Virus genome (UHGV): UHGV-0171999
Reading direction: 5' to 3' (one strand)
DNA from: a virus
Length of the DNA stretch: 64,000 nucleotides
The first letter of the stretch is position 1; each line of letters starts with the position of its first letter. Both the position numbers and the translations under genes were made by a program. Under the pieces are notes generated by a model. It saw nothing but the letters and a program-made list of their open reading frames with translations. It did no database searches and was not told the DNA's origin. Shown here piece after piece: positions 1 to 49,565 of the stretch.

Positions 1-2683
1 GGGTAATTGCTATAAATCCAAATCCTACTGGATGAACAAAACGAATAACGTCAGATTTCCAACGGGAAGAAGGCAAATTGGATTTAATTTTCATTACATA
101 ATATGATCGACTTCTATTAATATAGTCTATATTATTTTGAAGCAAATCCTTTCCTTTAACCCCACGAATAATTTCGCCTTCAAAACTAGGAAGTCTTTCT
201 GCTTTAACTTCTTGACCGGCAATTAATCTTCCCAAAAGATTATGAATAGTTACGGTCCATTGCAATTTACCATTAGAATAGCTTCTTTCTATATAAGTAA
301 CATTGCATCTTCCTGTAGCTGTATAAATCGTTTGTCCTACTAAGTCTTCAGTCAAAGAATCAGATTGAACGATTATATCATATTCAGTACCAGCCCCAGA
401 TTCGATTTCAATTTCAACTTCTTCATTATAAAGAACTTTAAAAAGAAATTTGTATGATGCTTCAATTCCTTTAGTAGAATAAAAATCATAGCTACGTGAT
501 TCGAAAAATCTTGCAACAGCATCGCGTTTGTCAGCATTTAAATAAATGTTTCTTTTATATATCTCTGACCACAAATATTCCCATGCATGCTCTTCTCGCG
601 GATATTTGTTACGAATTAAATTTCGTAAATTGTTATACTGAGTTCCATATCCATCAGAAAGATACTGAATATATGCTTCGCAAAATGCCTCAAAATTCGA
701 ATCCTGTAGCAAGTAAGAATCAGGCATCATTGTGCCAATCAATGGTCTTAAATCAGGGTCAGCTAATCCACGCTCTTCTTCAGGCGACCAAGGGGTTTCA
801 TGCTCTTGGTTTTGTAAAAATGCTTTTAAAAATACTTCAGTTGGCTTCCAAATAATTTCGACAGTGTCTCTAACACGATAATTAAAATCATAGTAAGAAA
901 TTATTTCACCGGAGGCTTTATAGAAAAGCATCCCAGATGCATATTTTTTAAATCCAGTGAATTTAACATTTGGCATTACTATAGTGCAATCGCCATCATC
1001 CCAGTATTCATGAACTAATCTATCTGGTGATGTTTCCGGAATATTTTCTATAACTTTAGTGTATTTTAAATCAGCATAAACTACTACAACCCTATCAGAG
1101 TTGTTTATCCAACAACGCGTGTTAGATTTTTTAGACCAGTTAAAGAATGGTTCAGCGTAGTATTTCATCGGCTGAGGAGTAAAAGTTTCCCAATCAGACT
1201 TTTCATCTGCTATAAATGCCATCATATGATAATGCTTATCAGCTAGCCATTCACGAGGAAATTCATATTTAACGGCACCGATTAACTGATATTTTGCCGC
1301 AGTTTCAGGGTCATCAACAACATTATCACTTAAAAATTTAAAATTACTCGATGATAGAGAAACTAATTTACCATCAGTTGACATATTCGCATACCCTGGT
1401 TGAATACGTCTTCTTTCTTCTTCAGTGTTGCCAAAAACTCTTTTCCATGTTTTTGTGTCATGATTTAAAACATATATTCCTTTATCAACAGAATCAATTA
1501 TTTTTGATGTTCTAGGATTAGCATTTAATGTTTCAACTTCACCAATAATAAGAGCAAAAACTTTATCACCGACAGAATCCATTTTATAGCATACTGCTTT
1601 AGGATTTCCGGTTATAGTCATTGTATCAGGTTCAAAAAGCCTTTCAGAATATGTTGGAGATAATGGGTCAGAATCTATAGGTGCATTACTCGTTTTTATG
1701 TATCTAACTTTGTCTCTGGCAACAACGTAAATGTAATCATCGGTGCAAGTAATAGCTTCTGCAATGCGATATACATTCGCTGGTAAAGTCGCGTAAGTGG
1801 CAAAAATTTCTACATCAAATCCTAAATGTAATTGGTCGCCAAGTTTAGCAAATGTTATATCCTGTGAACTGAATCTGACATCGTCAGCTGACCATCTAAC
1901 ATCAGTCGATTTGCGGCCATAGAAAATCTTGTCGTATCCTAGAACGTATGTTGTGTTCGCAGATTGGTAATATACTGTCTTAGATAAAGGATATCCTACG
2001 CGGTCATTGAAGAGCTTTACAGCTTTCCAGGTTTGTCCTTTATCATTAGATACTTTAACTACAGGTTGATAACGCTCAAAAAGATATAGAATCCCTTCTG
2101 ATTCCATCAAATAAACTCGGTTAATATCCTTACATACTTGTTGAATAGAACCTTGTATTTCATGATACTCATTTTCACCAATAATAAAATTACTTATTGA
2201 TGAAACATCAACATATGATGGACTGAATTGAAAAGATTCATTCATCAATGCAGCCATTATAGTGTCATTATTAAAATTGACATAATCAGAATTATTAAGA
2301 GTAAATTTTTCCTGAATGAATTTATTGGCTAATTGCATTTCAATCATGTTTTGAAATGTATAAGCATTTGTAGCAAAAGTTTCAAACTCTTCGGTATAAA
2401 TCCAATCAGACTGCTCAAAATCTTGCGCAGCTGTAGCTACTCTGATAATGTATGATGTCAATGGGTCAGCATCATCAAAAAAGAAGCTGTTATTTGCAGT
2501 ATATCCTAAGTTAATCCATCTGTATTGATTACTCGGGAGATTTTCCCCCGAGTTTGTTTTTGTCTCAGCGATTTCTACAAAATAGTAGAAATTAGCACCA
2601 ACGTCATCCCAGCGTACTTGCACCTGATTTGCGGATAACTTGGAAATTCTGAGACTAGTGACTGAAGGTGCTTTTACTGTCAT
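1..2683 (-). CDS. 7: baseplate wedge protein gp7, partial (start codon at 2683, 3' end beyond window start)
   Basis: Reverse-complement from 2683 reads MTVKAPSVTSLRISKLSANQVQVRWDDVGANFYYF; open to position 1; ATGA overlap with gene 6 stop; synteny 6-7. Confidence 0.85.
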   Translation of the reverse strand, partial: MTVKAPSVTSLRISKLSANQVQVRWDDVGANFYYFVEIAETKTNSGENLPSNQYRWINLGYTANNSFFFDDADPLTSYIIRVATAAQDFEQSDWIYTEEFETFATNAYTFQNMIEMQLANKFIQEKFTLNNSDYVNFNNDTIMAALMNESFQFSPSYVDVSSISNFIIGENEYHEIQGSIQQVCKDINRVYLMESEGILYLFERYQPVVKVSNDKGQTWKAVKLFNDRVGYPLSKTVYYQSANTTYVLGYDKIFYGRKSTDVRWSADDVRFSSQDITFAKLGDQLHLGFDVEIFATYATLPANVYRIAEAITCTDDYIYVVARDKVRYIKTSNAPIDSDPLSPTYSERLFEPDTMTITGNPKAVCYKMDSVGDKVFALIIGEVETLNANPRTSKIIDSVDKGIYVLNHDTKTWKRVFGNTEEERRRIQPGYANMSTDGKLVSLSSSNFKFLSDNVVDDPETAAKYQLIGAVKYEFPREWLADKHYHMMAFIADEKSDWETFTPQPMKYYAEPFFNWSKKSNTRCWINNSDRVVVVYADLKYTKVIENIPETSPDRLVHEYWDDGDCTIVMPNVKFTGFKKYASGMLFYKASGEIISYYDFNYRVRDTVEIIWKPTEVFLKAFLQNQEHETPWSPEEERGLADPDLRPLIGTMMPDSYLLQDSNFEAFCEAYIQYLSDGYGTQYNNLRNLIRNKYPREEHAWEYLWSEIYKRNIYLNADKRDAVARFFESRSYDFYSTKGIEASYKFLFKVLYNEEVEIEIESGAGTEYDIIVQSDSLTEDLVGQTIYTATGRCNVTYIERSYSNGKLQWTVTIHNLLGRLIAGQEVKAERLPSFEGEIIRGVKGKDLLQNNIDYINRSRSYYVMKIKSNLPSSRWKSDVIRFVHPVGFGFIAIT

Positions 2684-4662
2684 TGTGATATAGGCTCCAA
2701 ATCGATAGTTAAGTATTGTGGACGTAAGTCATTTTCAAATACAATCAGTGAACCGTCGCGAGTAAAGATAACATCATCGGTTGGGTCAGAATATAATTCA
2801 ATGGTCTGAACTTCAAATTTTTCAGATGTTAAATTAATTTTAGCGATATTCCAATAAATCACATCAGCTGGATAATTTATTTCACCGATAACATAGTATT
2901 TGTCACGTCCATCAGAATTTGCTAATTTGTTAAAATCGTTGCCTGTATACGGCTGAATGTTTTCATTTTCTGTAACATCACCAGAAGCAAATGGACCAAT
3001 AATAACTTTACCAATTCCTTTAGAATCTCGGTCTGTTGATACTATGCGAACGTCATATAATACATCTTCTTCTAAACCAGTATCAGGATTTACAACCTTT
3101 CGTCCAGAATTAAATGAAAATGTATTAGATTCCATAGAACGATCTTTTATTTGATTATTGTATTTAATACCTGCTTCAGGCGTTTTATAGAAGTTTTGTA
3201 CTTCACGAACAATTTGAATTGTCGCTGATGAACCAATGATAGAATGATCTACATCATCTACATATGTCAACATCTTAGATTTAGCGAAAGATGAGTTAAA
3301 AATTTCTACATCTTCGGTATAATAACGATCAATTTTATCAATTATTTGACCTTCGAGCCACTGTTCGGATTCTTGCAGCTTATTTAAAGCATATGTGACT
3401 TTTAAATTAGTCTTAATAAAAAGATAATTAGGAGAAATAATTGATGGCGTAATAGGAGCTAAATTATAGTCTTTGAGATAATTTTTAATATCTTCACGCT
3501 GTACGGTAGTTAAATACAGACCTGATTTAGGTTTAGCAGCAATAAATGCATAACCAGGTTTAGTAGAATCAGTGAACGTCTGAACTGCTTGAATAATAGA
3601 ACCAAATCTCTCTGAAACGAATGTATCATAGTCAGTCGCAGTTACGCAGCGTTGCTGAGTTTCGCGTTTAATAGTACCCAATTCGCGAATACGTTCAATA
3701 TCTTCTGGATCACCGCCGCCATCTGCCCCAACAAAATCTGGGTCATCGTTTGGATTTTCATTAATATTGATGACAGTTATATTTGTTAATGTATCTGCGT
3801 ATGAAAATCCGACTGCGCCATTCGCATCTGCACCGTTAGTACTGATGTACTCAATAACAATCGTAGAGTTCTGAGTAGGTTTAAGACCTCCAATGTAATT
3901 AGCGGTTAATGCTCCTTCTGCCGCATTAACGGAAATCTCACCTTCACCAAAATAGAATTCAGTGTTTCCATCAATAGTTTCACGCATATAATAAATCGTT
4001 GATGTTGAACCAGCATGAACCATTGACTTTCTCGTCCAGTTAATCCATTCCGCTCCATCAACATATAATTTAACCTGGTTTCTATCAATATTTTTATCAT
4101 AAATGATAATAGGTGTTAATTTATCATAAATGATTTCGGTTCTTACTATACGCCCTTGAGCAAGTTTTAAACGTGGAAAATATTGGTTATTTTTATCACG
4201 AATAGCAATAACGTCTTCAGTAGAAACGAAGTTATATGGATTAACAGAAGTATCTTTTGCGTATGCTAAAAAGCGAGTACCACGAGGAATAGTAATGTAA
4301 TTTCTATTCAATGCGTCTGTGCACGTTAACATAATTTCAGTCTGTGCAGCGGATTTTGAAGTAGGTAAATATCCGTTATCTTGCGCAGCTTGAACAACTG
4401 AACTTCGTAAGTTAGCAGTACGCATAAAGCTTTCATACACGGCAGCATTACCAAACTGCTGAATGTATAATGTATTATAAGCCAAAAGGTCGCACAGAAC
4501 GTTTAATCTTGAGCCTTCAAAATCATAATCCAAAAATTCATTTTGACCATTAAGCCATTCAATGAGGTTTTGTTTTATTTCAGCAAATGTACCCCCGACG
4601 AATATCTCGGGAATAGCATTTGCTGTTCTTGTTAATTGATAATTTACAGGGGTATTTGCCAT
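2680..4662 (-). CDS. 6: baseplate wedge protein gp6
   Basis: 660-aa ORF; synteny between 5.4 and 7; length as recalled for T4 gp6. Confidence 0.88.
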   Translation of the reverse strand: MANTPVNYQLTRTANAIPEIFVGGTFAEIKQNLIEWLNGQNEFLDYDFEGSRLNVLCDLLAYNTLYIQQFGNAAVYESFMRTANLRSSVVQAAQDNGYLPTSKSAAQTEIMLTCTDALNRNYITIPRGTRFLAYAKDTSVNPYNFVSTEDVIAIRDKNNQYFPRLKLAQGRIVRTEIIYDKLTPIIIYDKNIDRNQVKLYVDGAEWINWTRKSMVHAGSTSTIYYMRETIDGNTEFYFGEGEISVNAAEGALTANYIGGLKPTQNSTIVIEYISTNGADANGAVGFSYADTLTNITVININENPNDDPDFVGADGGGDPEDIERIRELGTIKRETQQRCVTATDYDTFVSERFGSIIQAVQTFTDSTKPGYAFIAAKPKSGLYLTTVQREDIKNYLKDYNLAPITPSIISPNYLFIKTNLKVTYALNKLQESEQWLEGQIIDKIDRYYTEDVEIFNSSFAKSKMLTYVDDVDHSIIGSSATIQIVREVQNFYKTPEAGIKYNNQIKDRSMESNTFSFNSGRKVVNPDTGLEEDVLYDVRIVSTDRDSKGIGKVIIGPFASGDVTENENIQPYTGNDFNKLANSDGRDKYYVIGEINYPADVIYWNIAKINLTSEKFEVQTIELYSDPTDDVIFTRDGSLIVFENDLRPQYLTIDLEPISQ

Positions 4663-4670
4663 TTTAAATC

Positions 4671-4964
4671 CTATTTAATGAATACTTTAGATGATGCCTG
4701 AGCCACAGTATCACCGCATGATATTGGATCAGCCATTTGAACAGCTTTCTTTCCAGTGACATATACCTTAGAAGTTCTAGGTTGTGTCACTCCGCCATGT
4801 GTTTCATATGGCTTTTTAATTTCTGTATGTTCTGTAATTGGATCACCTGCTACGAGAACAGCAATTCCTCCAGTGAATACTTTACTCTGTGTAGCATTCA
4901 CAACTGTTGGAGGCCATGCTTCATGGCCGGCAGTAACGCACTTATCATAACTTAATCCTGACAT
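4671..4964 (-). CDS. 5.4: baseplate spike tip PAAR-repeat protein gp5.4
   Basis: 97-aa ORF immediately downstream of gene 5 region; size and position as recalled for T4 gp5.4. Confidence 0.75.
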
Positions 4965-5522
4965 TTATGACCTCTCATACACGTAGCTTCTCAATTTATT
5001 AGCCCAACGACTCCAATTTCCAACTATAGTTTTTGTATAATTTTTAACAAGAGTTTTTCTTATTGGAGCTGGAGGATTCGTCGGTTCAGTAGTATCAGAA
5101 GATGACCTAGAATTACTGCCAGAACCTCCAGATTCACCTTGTTCTTGGTAGTCATATATTAATGTTACTTCGTAAGTGAATGTCTTCTGGAGGTTTTGAG
5201 GAGCTTTCCATAGATATAACTGAGTATTAGAATCAGTTGGAAGGTCTTCCCATGAAGCAGCAGTTTTAAATTCATTATCTAAACGATATTTCAACGCATC
5301 ATTTCCAAATCCAAATACAGATTCATACGTTCCATATAAACGATTTTCTTCTACTAAAACCCCAGGAGTTTCTTCGTAACTAGTTATATTTATAGATACT
5401 AACGTTTCACCTGTTTCTAATTGAGCGGTAAAGGTGACGTCGATAGAAGAACCTTCCATGGATTCTCCTAAATCAGCGCTCATTGGAAGTATATTAGCCA
5501 ATGTCAATCCTCGATCCATCAA
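4965..5522 (-). CDS. hypothetical protein (gp5.1 position); true start may be an internal Met because the ORF overlaps gene 5 by 29 nt
   Basis: 185-aa ORF between genes 5 and 5.4. Confidence 0.5.
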
Positions 5523-7221
5523 TTGTGTATTGACCAGATGAAATAGAACTCATAGATGCCATTTTTTCTGTCCAATCACCACCAACGTCCCAATCAACTG
5601 TCCCAGCAACTTTCCAAGAAAGATTTCCATTTACTGTATTAGTCTGATTTCCTTCAACTAAAGTGGTAGCATCTCCTTTAACTGTAATGTCAGCATTACC
5701 TTCAACTACAATAGTAACATTACCTTTAACTAGGATAGTTCCATTACCTTCAACTGTCTTAGTTTCATCGCCACGTACAAATATTGTATTACTTCCATCT
5801 ATCTGGTGAAGACGATTATCCATGTTGTAATAAATTTCTGAACCACCGACGTTAGTCTTTTTATCACCGGCTACCAAAAAATTACCATCAGCGTTGGTTA
5901 TATCATACAAATTATCAACAGTTTTTCTTGTTCTTCTTCCTGACGGTGATACTTCTTCATAAGTTCCAGTTGGATGAACTAATCTATATCGTTCTTGCCC
6001 AGGGGTATCATCAAATTCCTGAATATGACCACTTTCAGTTTCCATTGTGTGAACATACGGATATTCACCTTTATATGAAGAAACAGGTTCTTTGAATAAA
6101 ATTCTCGAATCATTCGGAATAGGAGGGTCAGCTGGATCAGAAGACTTCGCCACAGTAGCAGCCATTGCTGATAGAGACCTAGCTGGAGTTTTCACTTCAA
6201 TACCGTATGATTCCAAATTACCCGTAAGAATAATCATGGTAACACGGGATGCACGGCCTTTTGTTTGTTGATACCACAATGAATCACGACCAGCTTTATA
6301 TGCTTTTTCCCAATCTCCGGCTAACATAGCAGTTAACATTGTGTTAAATTTAGCTACACCGCCAACACCCATCTGAAATGCCATATTTTCTAATGCCATT
6401 TGACGAGAACGATTAACTGCTTGCCAAACTGGGCCAACTTTAGAATGTGATTTAATGTCACGTTGCATATCAGCCAAATCACGCTCAAATAAAGCTACCG
6501 CTTCTTCCATTGTAATAGAACCTGGATTTCCGGTAATTTCACGACCAACTTGTTTTGATAAAACTTTATTAATTTGGGTCATATCACGAACTGGCTGCTT
6601 CATGATAAGATGACCAATGCCAATTGTCGGATATCCTTCAGTATCCCAATAAACTTTTAGTCTTAATCCTTCATCACGGCGAAGCATTTCAGCCATTGAC
6701 ATATTTGGATTATCATCAGTTGGAATCTCTGATAACGGTCTATCATCGGGATTTATTGCAGTGTCTAGATTGCTATCTTGGATAATATTAGAAGACGAAT
6801 CATATCCTACTTCTCCGCCTTGGTTTAATACGTTAGTATCATTTCCTAGACGTCTAGGATACTGTCCAGTCGGGTCAGAAAATCCTTCAAGTCTATTAGG
6901 CTTTTCGCGAACTATTCCGCCATACGTGCCAAGGACAATTCCGTTAGTTTTCCATTTGTCTAAAAAATGACCATAAACTCTAGTTCCTTCTACCGGACCA
7001 GTAACGGAGCCTCCAATTCCAGACATTGCTGCAGAAGTTATAGGTTGAATAACTGACATCCATGGTAATTTATCAGTTGGAATACCCATTACGTCGCCTT
7101 GTGCTCTTTGAGGTGGATGCAGACCAACTACACGAACACGAACACGACCTAATTTTAATGGGTCCATTCTATCTTCAACAACACCAACAAACCAATTAAG
7201 GTTATTACTTATCATTTCCAT
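5494..7221 (-). CDS. 5: baseplate central hub and tail lysozyme gp5
   Basis: 575-aa ORF; internal lysozyme motif EMLRRDEGLRLKVYWDTEGYPTIGIGHL similar to gene e; C-terminal VxGxxxxx beta-helix repeats. Confidence 0.92.
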   Translation of the reverse strand: MEMISNNLNWFVGVVEDRMDPLKLGRVRVRVVGLHPPQRAQGDVMGIPTDKLPWMSVIQPITSAAMSGIGGSVTGPVEGTRVYGHFLDKWKTNGIVLGTYGGIVREKPNRLEGFSDPTGQYPRRLGNDTNVLNQGGEVGYDSSSNIIQDSNLDTAINPDDRPLSEIPTDDNPNMSMAEMLRRDEGLRLKVYWDTEGYPTIGIGHLIMKQPVRDMTQINKVLSKQVGREITGNPGSITMEEAVALFERDLADMQRDIKSHSKVGPVWQAVNRSRQMALENMAFQMGVGGVAKFNTMLTAMLAGDWEKAYKAGRDSLWYQQTKGRASRVTMIILTGNLESYGIEVKTPARSLSAMAATVAKSSDPADPPIPNDSRILFKEPVSSYKGEYPYVHTMETESGHIQEFDDTPGQERYRLVHPTGTYEEVSPSGRRTRKTVDNLYDITNADGNFLVAGDKKTNVGGSEIYYNMDNRLHQIDGSNTIFVRGDETKTVEGNGTILVKGNVTIVVEGNADITVKGDATTLVEGNQTNTVNGNLSWKVAGTVDWDVGGDWTEKMASMSSISSGQYTIDGSRIDIG

Positions 7222-7795
7222 AAGATTTCTCCATTATACGTATAAGGTCGTTCATAAATGAATTGATGTCTGATTTTGCTATTATTTTTATTTGACGAAG
7301 TTTTTCATTTTCAAGAACAGCAGCTTCATACGTATCGACTGCAGCAAGTGCTCCTTCATATTGAGGATATTTTCTAGCTTTATCGCCTTTGTCATACCAA
7401 ACATATGGATTATCATCATATGATACTAAATTATAAAATTTTTCACCGTTCTCGTTCACATGATATACTATTTGGTCTCCACCTACGTTTTTGTATTTTT
7501 GTATAGATGCTTGATAAGCAGCTTCTTGCGAAGTAATCCATCCATAATACGGATCATAATTATCATTACACATCAATAAAACCCAATACAACTGCGGATT
7601 TCCATATATAGCATTTGCTAATTCTTCCGGGCGTGGTGAACCTTTAATATAATAAGTACGTAAACGGTATCCCGCAAGAGCACGTTTGAAATAGTCTTTA
7701 TAGTTTCTAAAAATATCTGTCATAGGAATAGTCGGCGCGTTTTTATTCACCGTTTTGGCCGCATATTCAATCGGATCAAAAAATGTAAAGAGCAT
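7205..7795 (-). CDS. 53: baseplate wedge protein gp53
   Basis: 196-aa ORF upstream of gene 5, overlapping its start; synteny. Confidence 0.8.
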   Translation of the reverse strand: MLFTFFDPIEYAAKTVNKNAPTIPMTDIFRNYKDYFKRALAGYRLRTYYIKGSPRPEELANAIYGNPQLYWVLLMCNDNYDPYYGWITSQEAAYQASIQKYKNVGGDQIVYHVNENGEKFYNLVSYDDNPYVWYDKGDKARKYPQYEGALAAVDTYEAAVLENEKLRQIKIIAKSDINSFMNDLIRIMEKSYGNDK

Positions 7796-20060: not shown

Positions 20061-20386
20061 TGACAGATACGCAACTTTTCGAATATCTTTATTTTTCGCC
20101 AAAAACTATTAAAAATAAATTGGTGAATCATTTTGAAATTTTGGCAAATAACAACGTCTTGAGCGAATTTTATCCTAAGCAATACAAATTACAAAAAGGT
20201 GTATTCAAAGGATGCAGAGTGTTGTGCACCGCTCCTAATGCAAAGTTAATGAATAAAATTCCATATTTTACCATGGAATTTATTGATGGGCCTTTTAAAG
20301 GACTAATTACCCAAAGTTTAATGGCATATGATTCTGAGCCATTTTTAATTAAAGAACAATCTTGGATAAATTTATTTTCTAATTGA
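20057..20386 (+). CDS. hypothetical protein
   Basis: ORF 20006-20386, start at Met-Met 20057; ATGA overlap. Confidence 0.4.
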
Positions 20387-20394
20387 GAGGTTAT

Positions 20395-20757
20395 ATGAAA
20401 GCATATCAAATTCTTGAAGGCACGCATAAAGGTACTATTTATTTTGAAGACGGTATTCAAGCACGAATTATTGTATCTAAAACCTTTAAAGAGGACTCTT
20501 TTGTAGACCCAGAAATTTTCTACGGTTTGCATGCCCGTGAAATTGAAATTGAAACACAACCTACAGTTAAAATTGAGGGTGGTCAACACCTGAACGTTAA
20601 CGTTCTGCGTCGCGAAACTCTGGAAGATGCAGTTAAGCATCCGGAAAAATATCCGCAGCTGACCATCCGTGTATCCGGTTATGCAGTTCGCTTTAACTCT
20701 CTGACTCCGGAACAGCAGCGCGACGTTATTGCTCGTACCTTTACCGAGAGTTTGTAA
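20395..20757 (+). CDS. autonomous glycyl radical cofactor (GrcA/YfiD-like)
   Basis: C-terminal [59 protein letters not shown] with glycyl-radical motif RVSGY, as recalled for E. coli GrcA. Confidence 0.8.
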
Positions 20758-20978
20758 TGGCAAAGATAATTATTGAAGGTTCTGAAGATGTGTTAAATGC
20801 TTTCGCCGAATGGTTTAGTAATTCAGGCGAACAACAATTTAACGAAGCGTGGAACATGGGTGATATTAATGGAATTTATCCTACGACAGAAATTTCTGTT
20901 CAAGGATATGGCATTCATGAGCCTATTCGTTTAGTTGAATATGATTTGGGAACAGGTGAGGAAGTAAAATATGATTGA
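20757..20978 (+). CDS. hypothetical protein
   Basis: 73-aa ORF, overlap-coupled. Confidence 0.4.
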   Translation: MAKIIIEGSEDVLNAFAEWFSNSGEQQFNEAWNMGDINGIYPTTEISVQGYGIHEPIRLVEYDLGTGEEVKYD

Positions 20979-32986: not shown

Positions 32987-33334
32987 ATGAAAACTCGTTC
33001 TCAAATTGAAGATATGGTTCGTAATGCCAGCTATACTCGTGATGTTATGACATTTTTGTGTCAAAATAATTTAGACCCTGATAAAGTTAATCGTGATATT
33101 CACTTTAAATATATGAATAGCAGTGAATGGTTACGTCATTTTAGTAAAGCGGGGTATATTACACAAATGACTGCTCGTGAGCAGCTCACCGATTTCTGTA
33201 AAACTATTGATTATAAAAATCCTCTATTTGTTCAGGCGTTGGTCAGAGTAAGGTTGATTTATCATCTGGATTTTTTAATCCAAATCATTATCGTATTGAA
33301 TGGAGATTTATTGCTCTATTCCGTAAACAATTAA
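32987..33334 (+). CDS. hypothetical protein
   Basis: 115-aa ORF. Confidence 0.4.
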   Translation: MKTRSQIEDMVRNASYTRDVMTFLCQNNLDPDKVNRDIHFKYMNSSEWLRHFSKAGYITQMTAREQLTDFCKTIDYKNPLFVQALVRVRLIYHLDFLIQIIIVLNGDLLLYSVNN

Positions 33335-46741: not shown

Positions 46742-46928
46742 CATTAATGATGAATTCATAGCAAACATTGATTATACCGAAGAAGATTCTAGATATGTTG
46801 GAATAATTTATATCACATCAAAAGCAGCGCAAGGTGTTGTTTGCATGGCTGAATTTGATGAATACTTTTTAGATTATGATGATATGATAGAATGGTCTAA
46901 AAGATACATTAAAAGGAATCTTTTGTGA
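46665..46928 (+). CDS. hypothetical protein (46.1 position); overlaps the upstream ORF in another frame
   Basis: 87-aa ORF; overlap of 29 to 77 nt depending on start. Confidence 0.4.
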   Translation: MTHLNHYKIWLYLVLRMHTVKFSTFDINDEFIANIDYTEEDSRYVGIIYITSKAAQGVVCMAEFDEYFLDYDDMIEWSKRYIKRNLL

Positions 46929-48613
46929 AGAATTTTAAACTTAATAGAGTAAAATATAAAAATATAATGTCAGTTGGTCAAAATGGGATTGACATTCAAT
47001 TAGATAAGGTTCAAAAAACTCTTATTACTGGACGAAATGGCGGTGGTAAGTCTACTATGTTAGAAGCCATCACATTCGGGCTTTTTGGCAAGCCATTCCG
47101 TGATGTAAAGAAAGGTCAATTAATAAACAGCACAAATAAGAAAGAACTTTTAGTTGAACTGTGGATGGAATATGATGAGAAAAAGTACTATATCAAAAGA
47201 GGACAAAAACCAAATGTTTTCGAAATCACCGTTAACGGTACACGTCTTAATGAATCTGCCAGCAGTAAAGATTTCCAAGCAGAATTTGAACAGCTTATCG
47301 GAATGTCATATGCCAGTTTCAAACAGATCGTCGTACTCGGCACGGCTGGATATACCCCTTTTATGGGCCTATCCACTCCTGCAAGAAGAAAGCTTGTCGA
47401 AGACCTGCTCGAGGTAGGAACATTAGCTGAAATGGATAAGCTTAATAAAGCACTAATACGTGAATTAAATTCACAGAACCAAGTGCTTGATGTTAAAAAA
47501 GATAGTATTATCCAACAAATTAAAATATATAATGATAACGTTGAACGCCAGAAAAAATTAACTGGTGATAACCTTACTCGTCTACAGAATATGTATGATG
47601 ATTTGGCAAAAGAAGCCAGAACGTTAAAATCGGAAATAGAAGAAGCTAATGAAAGATTAGTTAATATTGTTTTGGATGAAGACCCGACTGATGCATTTAA
47701 TAAAATCGGTCAAGAAGCATTTTTAATTAAATCAAAAATTGACTCGTATAATAAAGTCATTAATATGTATCACGAAGGTGGATTATGTCCAACCTGTTTG
47801 TCACAATTAAGTTCCGGCGATAAAGTTGTTTCTAAAATTAAAGATAAAGTTTCTGAATGCACGCATTCGTTTGAACAGCTTTCAACACATCGTGATAATT
47901 TAAAAGTTCTTGTTGATGAATACCGAGATAATATTAAAACCCAGCAGACGTTGGCGAATGATATTCGCAATAAAAAGCAATCTCTAATCACGACGGTAGA
48001 TAAAGCTAAAAAAGTTAAAGCAGCTATAGAAAAGGCATCATCTGAGTTTATTGACCATGCTGATGAAATAGCACTGCTTCAAGAAGAACTTGATAAAATT
48101 GTTAAGACAAAAACTAATTTAGTAATGGAAAAATACCACAGAGGAATTTTGACTGACATGCTCAAAGATTCTGGTATTAAAGGTGCTATTATTAAAAAGT
48201 ACATTCCATTATTTAATAAGCAGATTAACCATTATCTTAAAATAATGGAAGCGGATTATGTGTTTACATTAGATGAAGAATTTAATGAGACAATTAAATC
48301 CCGTGGTCGTGAAGATTTTAGTTATGCTTCATTTAGTCAAGGTGAAAAAGCACGAATTGATATTGCTCTTTTATTTACTTGGCGTGATATTGCTGAAAAA
48401 GTTTCAGGTGTTAAAATAAGTTGTTTATTTCTTGATGAAGTGTATGACGGTGCATTTGATGCTGAAGGTATTAAAAATGTGGCTAAAATTTTAGATGGTT
48501 TGAAGAATACCAACTTCTTCATAATTTCGCATAAAGACCATGACCCACAGGAATATGGTCAGCACATTCAAATGGAAAAAGTTGGTAGATTTAGTTTAGC
48601 TAAGATTAGTTAG
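46925..48613 (+). CDS. 46: recombination exonuclease subunit gp46 (Rad50/SbcC-like ATPase), apparent GTG start
   Basis: 562-aa ORF; Walker A GRNGGGKST, central coiled coil with CPTC zinc hook, C-terminal Walker B LFLDEVYDG. Confidence 0.92.
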   Translation: MKNFKLNRVKYKNIMSVGQNGIDIQLDKVQKTLITGRNGGGKSTMLEAITFGLFGKPFRDVKKGQLINSTNKKELLVELWMEYDEKKYYIKRGQKPNVFEITVNGTRLNESASSKDFQAEFEQLIGMSYASFKQIVVLGTAGYTPFMGLSTPARRKLVEDLLEVGTLAEMDKLNKALIRELNSQNQVLDVKKDSIIQQIKIYNDNVERQKKLTGDNLTRLQNMYDDLAKEARTLKSEIEEANERLVNIVLDEDPTDAFNKIGQEAFLIKSKIDSYNKVINMYHEGGLCPTCLSQLSSGDKVVSKIKDKVSECTHSFEQLSTHRDNLKVLVDEYRDNIKTQQTLANDIRNKKQSLITTVDKAKKVKAAIEKASSEFIDHADEIALLQEELDKIVKTKTNLVMEKYHRGILTDMLKDSGIKGAIIKKYIPLFNKQINHYLKIMEADYVFTLDEEFNETIKSRGREDFSYASFSQGEKARIDIALLFTWRDIAEKVSGVKISCLFLDEVYDGAFDAEGIKNVAKILDGLKNTNFFIISHKDHDPQEYGQHIQMEKVGRFSLAKIS

Positions 48614-49322
48614 GTTTATATTTACAATTATCATTATGCCATCTTGATAAATTTCCGAAAGTGGTAACTTTACCACAATGGACGCAAGTACCAGTCTTTT
48701 CAGTTTTCTTGCGTCCATTTGGATTTTTCTTGCAGAAATTTCTATGCGCTGCGATAACGCATTTCTTGCCTATCATTCCGCAGAATTCGCAGGATGTTTC
48801 TTCAAGAACGATTGCTTTAAGCCCGTTTGAGATATTATTTCTGTGTTCTTTAGACATTGGCGGTCTAACTTTAGGATTGGGGTGATTTGGGCAGTTATCA
48901 AAATGCCATCGATTCATATTCCCGCTTAATCCAGACTTACCGCAATGTGGACAAGTTAGTCTTGCTTTATTAGCTACTGCATCGGACATTTTCTTTCGTG
49001 TCTCTTGGGAGAACTCTTTATTCTTTTCTATTTCCCAGAGTTTACGACGAATCCAGCCGAAAGTTTTATTGTTGCGTTTAGCGTATTTCGTAGAAACTGT
49101 CATCATGTTAGCAGCATAGACTAATTTTGGTTCAGAAGGATAAATTTTTACTAAAAGTTGATGAGCTACATAGTGCTCTTCTGGTGTTAAATCTACTAAG
49201 TTTGAAGCATCATCGCTACCATTTAAACAGCGTGGTATAATGTGATGAGATTCAGTATAGCAATCAAGTTTTCGAGATTTAGCATTAGAGATTAACTTTT
49301 CGTAAATTAGTTTATAATTCAT
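48606..49322 (-). CDS. HNH homing endonuclease (Mob-like), antisense to neighbouring genes
   Basis: HNH motif ESHHIIPRCLNGSDDASNLVDLTPEEHYVAH; three C-terminal CxxCG...RWHxDNC zinc-finger-like repeats; overlaps gene 46 stop by 8 nt. Confidence 0.8.
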   Translation of the reverse strand: MNYKLIYEKLISNAKSRKLDCYTESHHIIPRCLNGSDDASNLVDLTPEEHYVAHQLLVKIYPSEPKLVYAANMMTVSTKYAKRNNKTFGWIRRKLWEIEKNKEFSQETRKKMSDAVANKARLTCPHCGKSGLSGNMNRWHFDNCPNHPNPKVRPPMSKEHRNNISNGLKAIVLEETSCEFCGMIGKKCVIAAHRNFCKKNPNGRKKTEKTGTCVHCGKVTTFGNLSRWHNDNCKYKPN

Positions 49323-49355
49323 AACATATCCTTTTGATACAGCGAGTGATAAACA

Positions 49356-49363
49356 TATTTATA
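49356..49363 (-). promoter_or_regulatory. late promoter TATAAATA (minus strand) upstream of the HNH gene
   Basis: Plus strand reads tatttata about 34 nt upstream of the HNH ATG at 49322. Confidence 0.45.
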
Positions 49364-49373
49364 CGGAGGAACT

Positions 49374-49565
49374 GTGGCAGAATATTCAACTGGACAGCAT
49401 CTATTAACTATTCCTGAAATAAAACGATATATTCTGAGAAATAATTTTTCTAATGAAGAGCATATAGTTACTGAATCTATGCTTAAGAATGCATTTAAAG
49501 CAGAATATACGAAAATAATGTCCAACAGAAATGAAGCTTGGACTGTTACTGATTATTATGACTAA
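49374..49565 (+). CDS. hypothetical small protein (apparent GTG start)
   Basis: 63-aa ORF after SD ggagga. Confidence 0.4.
   Translation: MAEYSTGQHLLTIPEIKRYILRNNFSNEEHIVTESMLKNAFKAEYTKIMSNRNEAWTVTDYYD

Follow-up and report, generated by a model that had tools for sequence, protein, structure and literature searches.

The endonuclease gene between genes 46 and 45.2

The stretch of DNA analysed here (the window throughout) comprises 64,000 nucleotides (nt) of the virus genome UHGV-0171999 and is a segment of a Tequatrovirus, i.e., T4-like coliphage, genome. Its plus strand carries, in the T4 early/middle direction, the genes 47, 46.2, 46.1, 46, 45.2, rpbA, 45, 44, and 62 in this order, and the element in question is an antisense open reading frame (ORF) located between genes 46 and 45.2 that encodes a putative Mob-type HNH homing endonuclease. 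The following features, given in window coordinates, make up the locus:

46925–48613, plus strand: gene 46, convergent with the endonuclease gene
48606–49322, minus strand: coding sequence of the Mob-type HNH homing endonuclease, orthologue of RB32ORF054w, with an ATG start and 238 amino acids (aa)
48594–49379: cassette of 786 base pairs (bp) with sharp ends that replaces 72 bp of T4, delimited by pairwise alignments with T4
49363–49356, minus strand: T4-type late promoter motif TATAAATA, separated by 33 nt from the endonuclease ATG (49322)
49374–49565, plus strand: gene 45.2, which takes its GTG start from the cassette, has one additional Ala codon, and is the right-hand neighbour of the endonuclease gene

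The stop codons of gene 46 and of the endonuclease gene overlap convergently by exactly the 8 nt (48606–48613) that an earlier note, made from the sequence alone, had described, and a Shine-Dalgarno sequence (AAGGA) lies 6 nt ahead of the endonuclease ATG. The same note had placed the gene between gene 46 and the rpbA-45 block, which needs correction as its immediate right neighbour is gene 45.2 and not rpbA. Its further statement that this is the sole minus-strand gene within the plus-strand block holds for ~7.8–64 kb, where no other credible minus-strand gene was found; the other minus-strand genes of the window are late baseplate genes (2680–7795). The near-identical annotated genome of JE01 has the same strand pattern, except for one 66-aa hypothetical protein downstream of gene 61. 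A second antisense candidate in the window, a 197-aa minus-strand ORF at 20170–20763, was rejected as spurious: it had no PHROG match and overlapped two real ORFs of the plus strand, and the C-terminus of one of these two is of the NrdD glycyl-radical type. No Mob paralogue was found elsewhere in the 64 kb.

The encoded protein aligned with T6 MobE over its full length of 238 aa (BLASTP, 36% identity, E = 2e−35; residues 1–100 are included in this alignment), matched PHROG 655, 'homing endonuclease' (9e−69), and hit the mobE and mobD loci of both T4 and T6 in tblastn searches, while database searches returned 2299 homologous proteins at E ≤ 1e−5. The designation as a Mob-type endonuclease, already proposed in the earlier note, was upheld by the MobE and PHROG matches. 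Along the protein, six segments were delimited:

49161–49253, minus strand: HNH (beta-beta-alpha-metal) catalytic core ESHHIIPRCLNGSDDASNLVDLTPEEHYVAH, residues 24–54
48972–49013, minus strand: NUMOD3-like helix FSQETRKKMSDAVA, residues 104–117, which aligns with the NUMOD3 segment of MobE and is a helix in the structural model
48891–48953, minus strand: zinc finger 1, CPHCGKSGLSGNMNRWHFDNC, residues 124–144, C-X2-C-X12-H-X3-C, kept in all homologues at the gene 46 locus and modelled as a hairpin plus helix with a predicted local distance difference test score (pLDDT) > 90
48816–48857, minus strand: second NUMOD3-like segment, MSKEHRNNISNGLK
48732–48791, minus strand: zinc finger 2, CEFCGMIGKKCVIAAHRNFC, residues 178–197, C-X2-C-X11-H-X3-C, without the RWHxDNC motif
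48624–48686, minus strand: zinc finger 3, CVHCGKVTTFGNLSRWHNDNC, residues 213–233, C-X2-C-X12-H-X3-C, which aligns with the C-terminus of MobE

The presence of an HNH core was borne out by an alignment of 40 diverse homologues, in which the residues E24, H26, H27, P30, G35, N41, H50, and H54 were invariant. A profile built from this alignment matched HNH cores of solved structure, namely those of McrA (6ghc, E = 0.0014), IscB, Cas8f-HNH, a group II intron maturase, and pyocin AP41, and the NCBIfam model of the IscB HNH region was matched at 3.7e−5. The earlier description of three tandem CxxCG...RWHxDNC repeats held only in part: there are three fingers, all of them with the pattern C-X2-C-X11/12-H-X3-C (classical zinc-finger spacing with a terminal Cys), but RWHxDNC occurs only in fingers 1 and 3, while finger 2 reads CEFCG...AAHRNFC. 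Finger 3 is common to the whole Mob-like family, MobE included, and its residues C213, C216, H229, and C233 were invariant in the same 40 homologues. The AlphaFold model, built from the alignment (pLDDT 91.4), has a compact N-terminal domain followed by helices and three hairpin-plus-helix units, with the CxxC of each finger on the hairpin and the HxxxC on the helix. Foldseek returned finger arrays of CTCF as top matches, which were weak (E = 0.007 or worse), as were the matches of a homologue to Pfam zf-C2H2 (E = 0.006) and of the profile to a CTCF finger in the PDB (E = 0.27). An N-terminal HNH head followed by a modular, predicted DNA-binding tail (two NUMOD3-like helices and three C2HC fingers of the beta-beta-alpha type) corresponds to the layout of Mob proteins.

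Distribution of the cassette and the linked end of gene 46

In the alignments with T4, homology was near-perfect up to position 48394, fell to 75–81% over 48395–48593, was absent over 48594–49379, and returned at ~99% from the second codon of gene 45.2. The 72 bp of T4 that were replaced consist of the last five codons of gene 46, a 55-bp spacer, and the ATG of gene 45.2, so that the cassette supplies a new C-terminus of gp46 (SLAKIS) and a new start of 45.2 (GTG-GCA). The right end of the cassette is alike in Mosigvirus, where ATG-GCG precedes GAG TAT, the general form being xTG-GCn-GAr. An insertion into a conserved locus, as the gene had been described, fits both this clean replacement and the presence/absence polymorphism that the comparison of the interval in related phages revealed at the same junction in five genera.

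Sixty phage records hold a copy of the gene at ≥ 95% identity in the same place, and in Mosigvirus, Dhakavirus, Slopekvirus, and Pseudotevenvirus, this gap is filled by homologues at 42–64% identity that are antisense as well. Carriers account for ~60 of ~504 Tequatrovirus records, 14 of 155 in Mosigvirus, 9 of ~59 in Dhakavirus, and 71 of 114 in Slopekvirus. In all cases checked, the gene was antisense and convergent with gene 46, whose stop codon it overlapped in most. Copies within Tequatrovirus differed from each other by 10–17 synonymous and 0–2 nonsynonymous substitutions, giving a ratio of nonsynonymous to synonymous rates (dN/dS) of 0.01–0.04, which indicates a protein under selection and not a decaying relic. 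Scans of IMG/VR with RpbA as a query (9 loci) and with an alignment of the gp46 C-terminus (80 loci) found the endonuclease gene in none of the 86 loci holding gene 46 or rpbA; most of these loci belong to distant marine T4-like phages and were thus of no help in mapping the linked tract described below.

In some Slopekviruses, the 46/45.2 gap is filled by another HNH ORF, which reads in the sense direction and encodes an endonuclease of 185 aa in Klebsiella phage Lychee_ER51 (locus L105, 1601–2155), and this marks the junction as a hotspot. In phage KLB27, this stretch contains an ORF with the annotation of an ERF-type transcription factor. Several other arrangements were recorded around the junction. 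Phage G28 (locus L001, 1526–2380, plus strand) has a second homing endonuclease gene of 855 nt between 46.1 and 46 that is absent from the window; judged by hit geometry, SYGD1, Aplg8, and LF73P1 carry it as well. In Mosigvirus FL31 (locus L107, 2918–3808), an extra ORF of 891 nt between rpbA and 45, absent from the other Mosigviruses examined, may be a mobile insert. Gene 46 of Dhakavirus Bp7 (locus L103, 1–1406) is annotated as two pieces (1–1144 and 1224–1406) just upstream of the endonuclease gene, which could reflect a frameshift, a sequencing error, or real damage. Finally, the region with the endonuclease gene is also present, at 97.5% identity, in the record PV654520.1, 'Pseudomonas phage vB_PSGBLB0006' (host P. 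aeruginosa), the host assignment of which looks doubtful.

The cassette is accompanied by a diverged tract in its left-hand neighbour:

48395–48593, plus strand: diverged 3' end of gene 46, 199 bp, 75–81% identical to alleles without the endonuclease gene (flanks 95.6–97.3%)

This patch was found at ≥ 90% identity in 60 records, a number equal to that of the records with the gene. The six patch records that were checked (the window, G28, JE01, RB32, RB51, and F13076) all carry the gene, while none of nine Tequatrovirus loci without the gene has the patch; judged from these sequences, the patch is strictly linked to the endonuclease gene, and it illustrates in a concrete case how nuclease genes can mark the limits of genetic exchange. 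Mosigvirus and Dhakavirus alleles are no closer to the patch (67–71% identity), so that neither points to its donor. As recombination within DNA diverged by 20% is disfavoured, the sharp edge at 48395 may mark the point where homology resumes. In Mosigvirus, linkage to the gene is confined to the final 19 nt of gene 46 and the replaced spacer, and two carriers differ in the extent of the linked tract. Both the linked patch and this variable tract could have been left by co-conversion, in the case of the latter from a break near the junction; common descent together with blocked recombination in diverged DNA explains them as well.

Within Tequatrovirus (loci L003, L005–L010, and L108–L110), the last 200 bp of gene 46 occur as three or more allele classes with sharp boundaries: the carrier type, the T4 type, and a further type, seen in L005 and L010, whose first 25 nt are those of the carrier type. 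Together, these classes make up a local mosaic hotspot beside the insertion site of the endonuclease gene. For the target of the enzyme, our best guess, which is inferred only, is a site at or near the stop codon of gene 46 and the spacer. The Leu codon CTT in the 'GQHLQM' stretch of gp46 was considered as an immunity site. It is changed to ATT, TTG, or TTA in all carriers among Tequatrovirus, Mosigvirus 348Ecol098PP, and Dhakavirus and kept in all non-carriers; the candidate was ruled out by Mosigvirus FL31, which carries the gene and keeps CTT.

Late and middle promoter signals

T4 late promoters, which are dependent on gp55, gp33, and gp45, have TATAAATA at about −10 and a short leader, and a −35 element is not needed. 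The minus-strand late-promoter motif that had been noticed about 34 nt upstream of the endonuclease ATG proved to be an exact match to this octamer at a distance of 33 nt, conserved in three genera; on the opposite strand, the Shine-Dalgarno sequence of gene 45.2 adjoins it. The motif is also present in G28, JE01, and RB32, and exact copies precede the ATG of the orthologues in Dhakavirus 04086 (36 nt; 64% protein identity) and Mosigvirus 348Ecol098PP (45 nt; 57% protein identity), where the spacers have otherwise diverged. The probability that it occurs by chance within 60 nt upstream on the correct strand is ~0.005. Three minus-strand copies are found in the window, two of them within the late baseplate cluster and the third before the endonuclease gene, which leaves one copy on the minus strand over 7832–64000 against ~4.6 expected (P about 0.06). 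This scarcity over 56 kb of early/middle genes hints at selection against stray antisense late promoters. The purifying selection on the endonuclease implies that the gene is expressed, and we infer late antisense transcription, which the placement and conservation of the motif support well. No intrinsic terminator was found downstream of the endonuclease gene or of gene 46.

The cassette also affects a promoter of the opposite strand. In T4, the spacer between 46 and 45.2 (reverse complement of locus L003, record positions 33247–33301) contains a perfect MotA-type middle promoter, ATGCTTTA-N12-TATAAT, upstream of 45.2, which the cassette deletes. A pattern scan of the window returned 10 strict MotA-type sites on the plus strand and two on the minus strand, among which one falls within the cassette:

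48812–48838, plus strand: MotA-type middle-promoter-like site, ATTGCTTTA-N12-TATTAT, inside the endonuclease ORF and sense to 45.2, rpbA, and 45

This site is conserved in JE01 and RB32 and may replace the lost promoter for 45.2, rpbA, and 45. Promoters of downstream genes embedded in the endonuclease ORF are a pattern reported for other seg and mob genes by Edgell, Gibb and Belfort, who describe them as a retention mechanism (PMC2988022, section 9).

Interpretation and known systems

Taken together, the gene very likely encodes a free-standing homing endonuclease of T4's Mob (HNH) type and resides on a 786-bp cassette between 46 and 45.2, antisense to the early/middle genes around it. Late in infection, gp55-RNA polymerase would start at TATAAATA and transcribe the gene in the T4 late direction. 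During mixed infection, the enzyme would then nick or cut the 46/45.2 junction region of a co-infecting relative devoid of the cassette, and recombinational repair would copy the cassette into the recipient genome, together with the 199 diverged bp of gene 46 next to it; the carrier itself would be immune because its own DNA is replaced or diverged in that region.

Several observations weigh against this interpretation. The full 199-bp patch is common to all 60 carriers in Tequatrovirus, which could reflect common descent with suppressed recombination and not repeated homing, and no activity, target site, or transcript of the gene has been reported in the literature searched. The search for an HNH domain with hidden Markov models, proposed in the earlier note as a check, gave a borderline outcome: the score for Pfam HNH (PF01844) was 16.9 bits (E = 0.0072), under the gathering cut-off of 21.4 bits that T6 MobE passes with 24.4 bits, while the family profile was positive against solved structures. 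Mob membership therefore rests on the homology to MobE and on the profile search. Pfam NUMOD3 (PF07460) likewise scored 12.6 bits (E = 0.14, residues 103–115), below its cut-off of 20.4 bits, which the corresponding segment of MobE exceeds with 35.3 bits. As for the late promoter, TATAAATA is not enriched in the window (10 found vs. 10.4 expected), and the Slopekvirus and Pseudotevenvirus homologues (42–44% identity) have no exact motif, only cTTAAATA or cCTAAATA.

The shared patch would also suit an endonuclease that has been retained and is no longer mobile, its loss being blocked as the cassette supplies the end of gp46, the start of 45.2, and perhaps a replacement promoter. Gene 46 is essential and its C-terminus is cassette-derived, as is the 45.2 start; the T4 MotA-type promoter is deleted while a MotA-type site is present in the ORF at 48812, and embedded promoters have been put forward as a retention mechanism, as cited above. 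We consider this very improbable, however, since dN/dS is low along the entire ORF and the catalytic and zinc ligands are intact, which points to selection on the protein and not just on embedded DNA signals, and since the sporadic presence in five genera speaks for continuing gain and loss.

A chance-level count of the motif and its inexact forms in the two more distant genera would be expected if TATAAATA were a fortuitous match and the gene were silent or expressed by rare read-through only, as proposed for segD of T4, which is antisense and promoterless (PMC2988022, section 9). This alternative, too, has little probability: the motif stands where chance would seldom put it, as the sole minus-strand copy in 56 kb, it recurs exactly at 33–45 nt upstream in three genera with otherwise diverged spacers, and purifying selection implies expression. 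That the protein is mainly a weapon or benefit for the phage, which excludes competing T-even markers or stimulates recombination at the replication-gene cluster, appears very improbable, for although strong purifying selection, the high carriage in Slopekvirus, and the adaptive role that recent work credits to the T-even homing endonuclease SegB (PMC13096335) would agree with it, it overlaps homing mechanistically (cutting of rival genomes and gene conversion are the same events), and carriage is only ~10% in three genera.

Two extensions of the homing endonuclease interpretation can be combined into a proposal that we regard as doubtful, i.e., that the three C2HC fingers would form a classical-type DNA-reading array and that the antisense late transcript, lacking a terminator, would run into gene 46 and down-regulate the gp46/47 nuclease late in infection. 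If true, this Mob subfamily would amount to a natural 'zinc-finger nuclease' whose target depends on the sequence of the fingers and on how many there are (one in MobE, three here), and the cassette would be more than a passenger as it would rewire the expression of its host locus.

The identification of the gene is not new. The same gene occurs in the same place in RB32 and RB51 (RB32ORF054w, annotated in 2006, and RB51ORF057), with ~97% DNA identity and no substantive difference. Its GenBank label, 'putative site-specific intron-like DNA endonuclease, similar to mobB', is a database label only; dozens of other records annotate the gene as 'homing endonuclease', and the homologue is named 'Mob-like HNH homing endonuclease' in Cronobacter phage records. 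In Petrov et al. 2010 (Table 5, PMC2993671), the gene figures among the mob-like HNH genes that RB32 and RB51 carry, and our literature search found no experimental work on it. As an ordinary and already catalogued member of a well-known class, the gene adds little by its identification alone. The case bears rather on how an invading endonuclease gene copes with a displaced host promoter (in this case, the MotA-type one upstream of 45.2), on antisense placement with an own late promoter, and on why the 46/45.2 junction is a hotspot for different HNH genes in different genera.

The closest characterised relative is MobE of T4 and T6, which shares with the present protein an HNH head at the N-terminus, a NUMOD3 segment, and the C-terminal CxxC...RWHxDxC finger, and whose gene is likewise free-standing, located between conserved genes, and sporadically distributed. 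MobE nicks nrdB of T2 (the nick site was mapped) and is inherited together with flanking markers (PMC2790892). The two differ in locus (nrdA/nrdB vs. 46/45.2), in the number of fingers (one vs. three), and in expression, as mobE is oriented like its neighbours, promoterless, and co-transcribed with nrdA (PMC2790892), being one of seven free-standing endonuclease genes without a promoter of their own (PMC2988022, section 9), whereas the gene described here is antisense and has its own late-promoter motif. All homing endonuclease genes of T4 are co-oriented with their neighbours except for segD (PMC2988022, section 9), which resembles the present gene in being antisense. In contrast, segD encodes a GIY-YIG enzyme, lies among late genes, has no identifiable promoter, and is thought to be nearly silent (PMC2988022), while the gene in the window is of the HNH type, is placed among early/middle genes, and is preceded by a conserved late-promoter motif. 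The combination of a nuclease head with an extended modular DNA-binding tail is also known from enzymes encoded in introns, I-HmuI and I-TevIII (both HNH) and I-TevI (with a zinc-finger linker), to none of which the protein showed a significant sequence or fold match; the intron endonucleases of T4 are expressed from late or middle promoters (PMC2988022). The single finger of I-TevI acts as a distance ruler, whereas the three fingers here make up the bulk of the tail.

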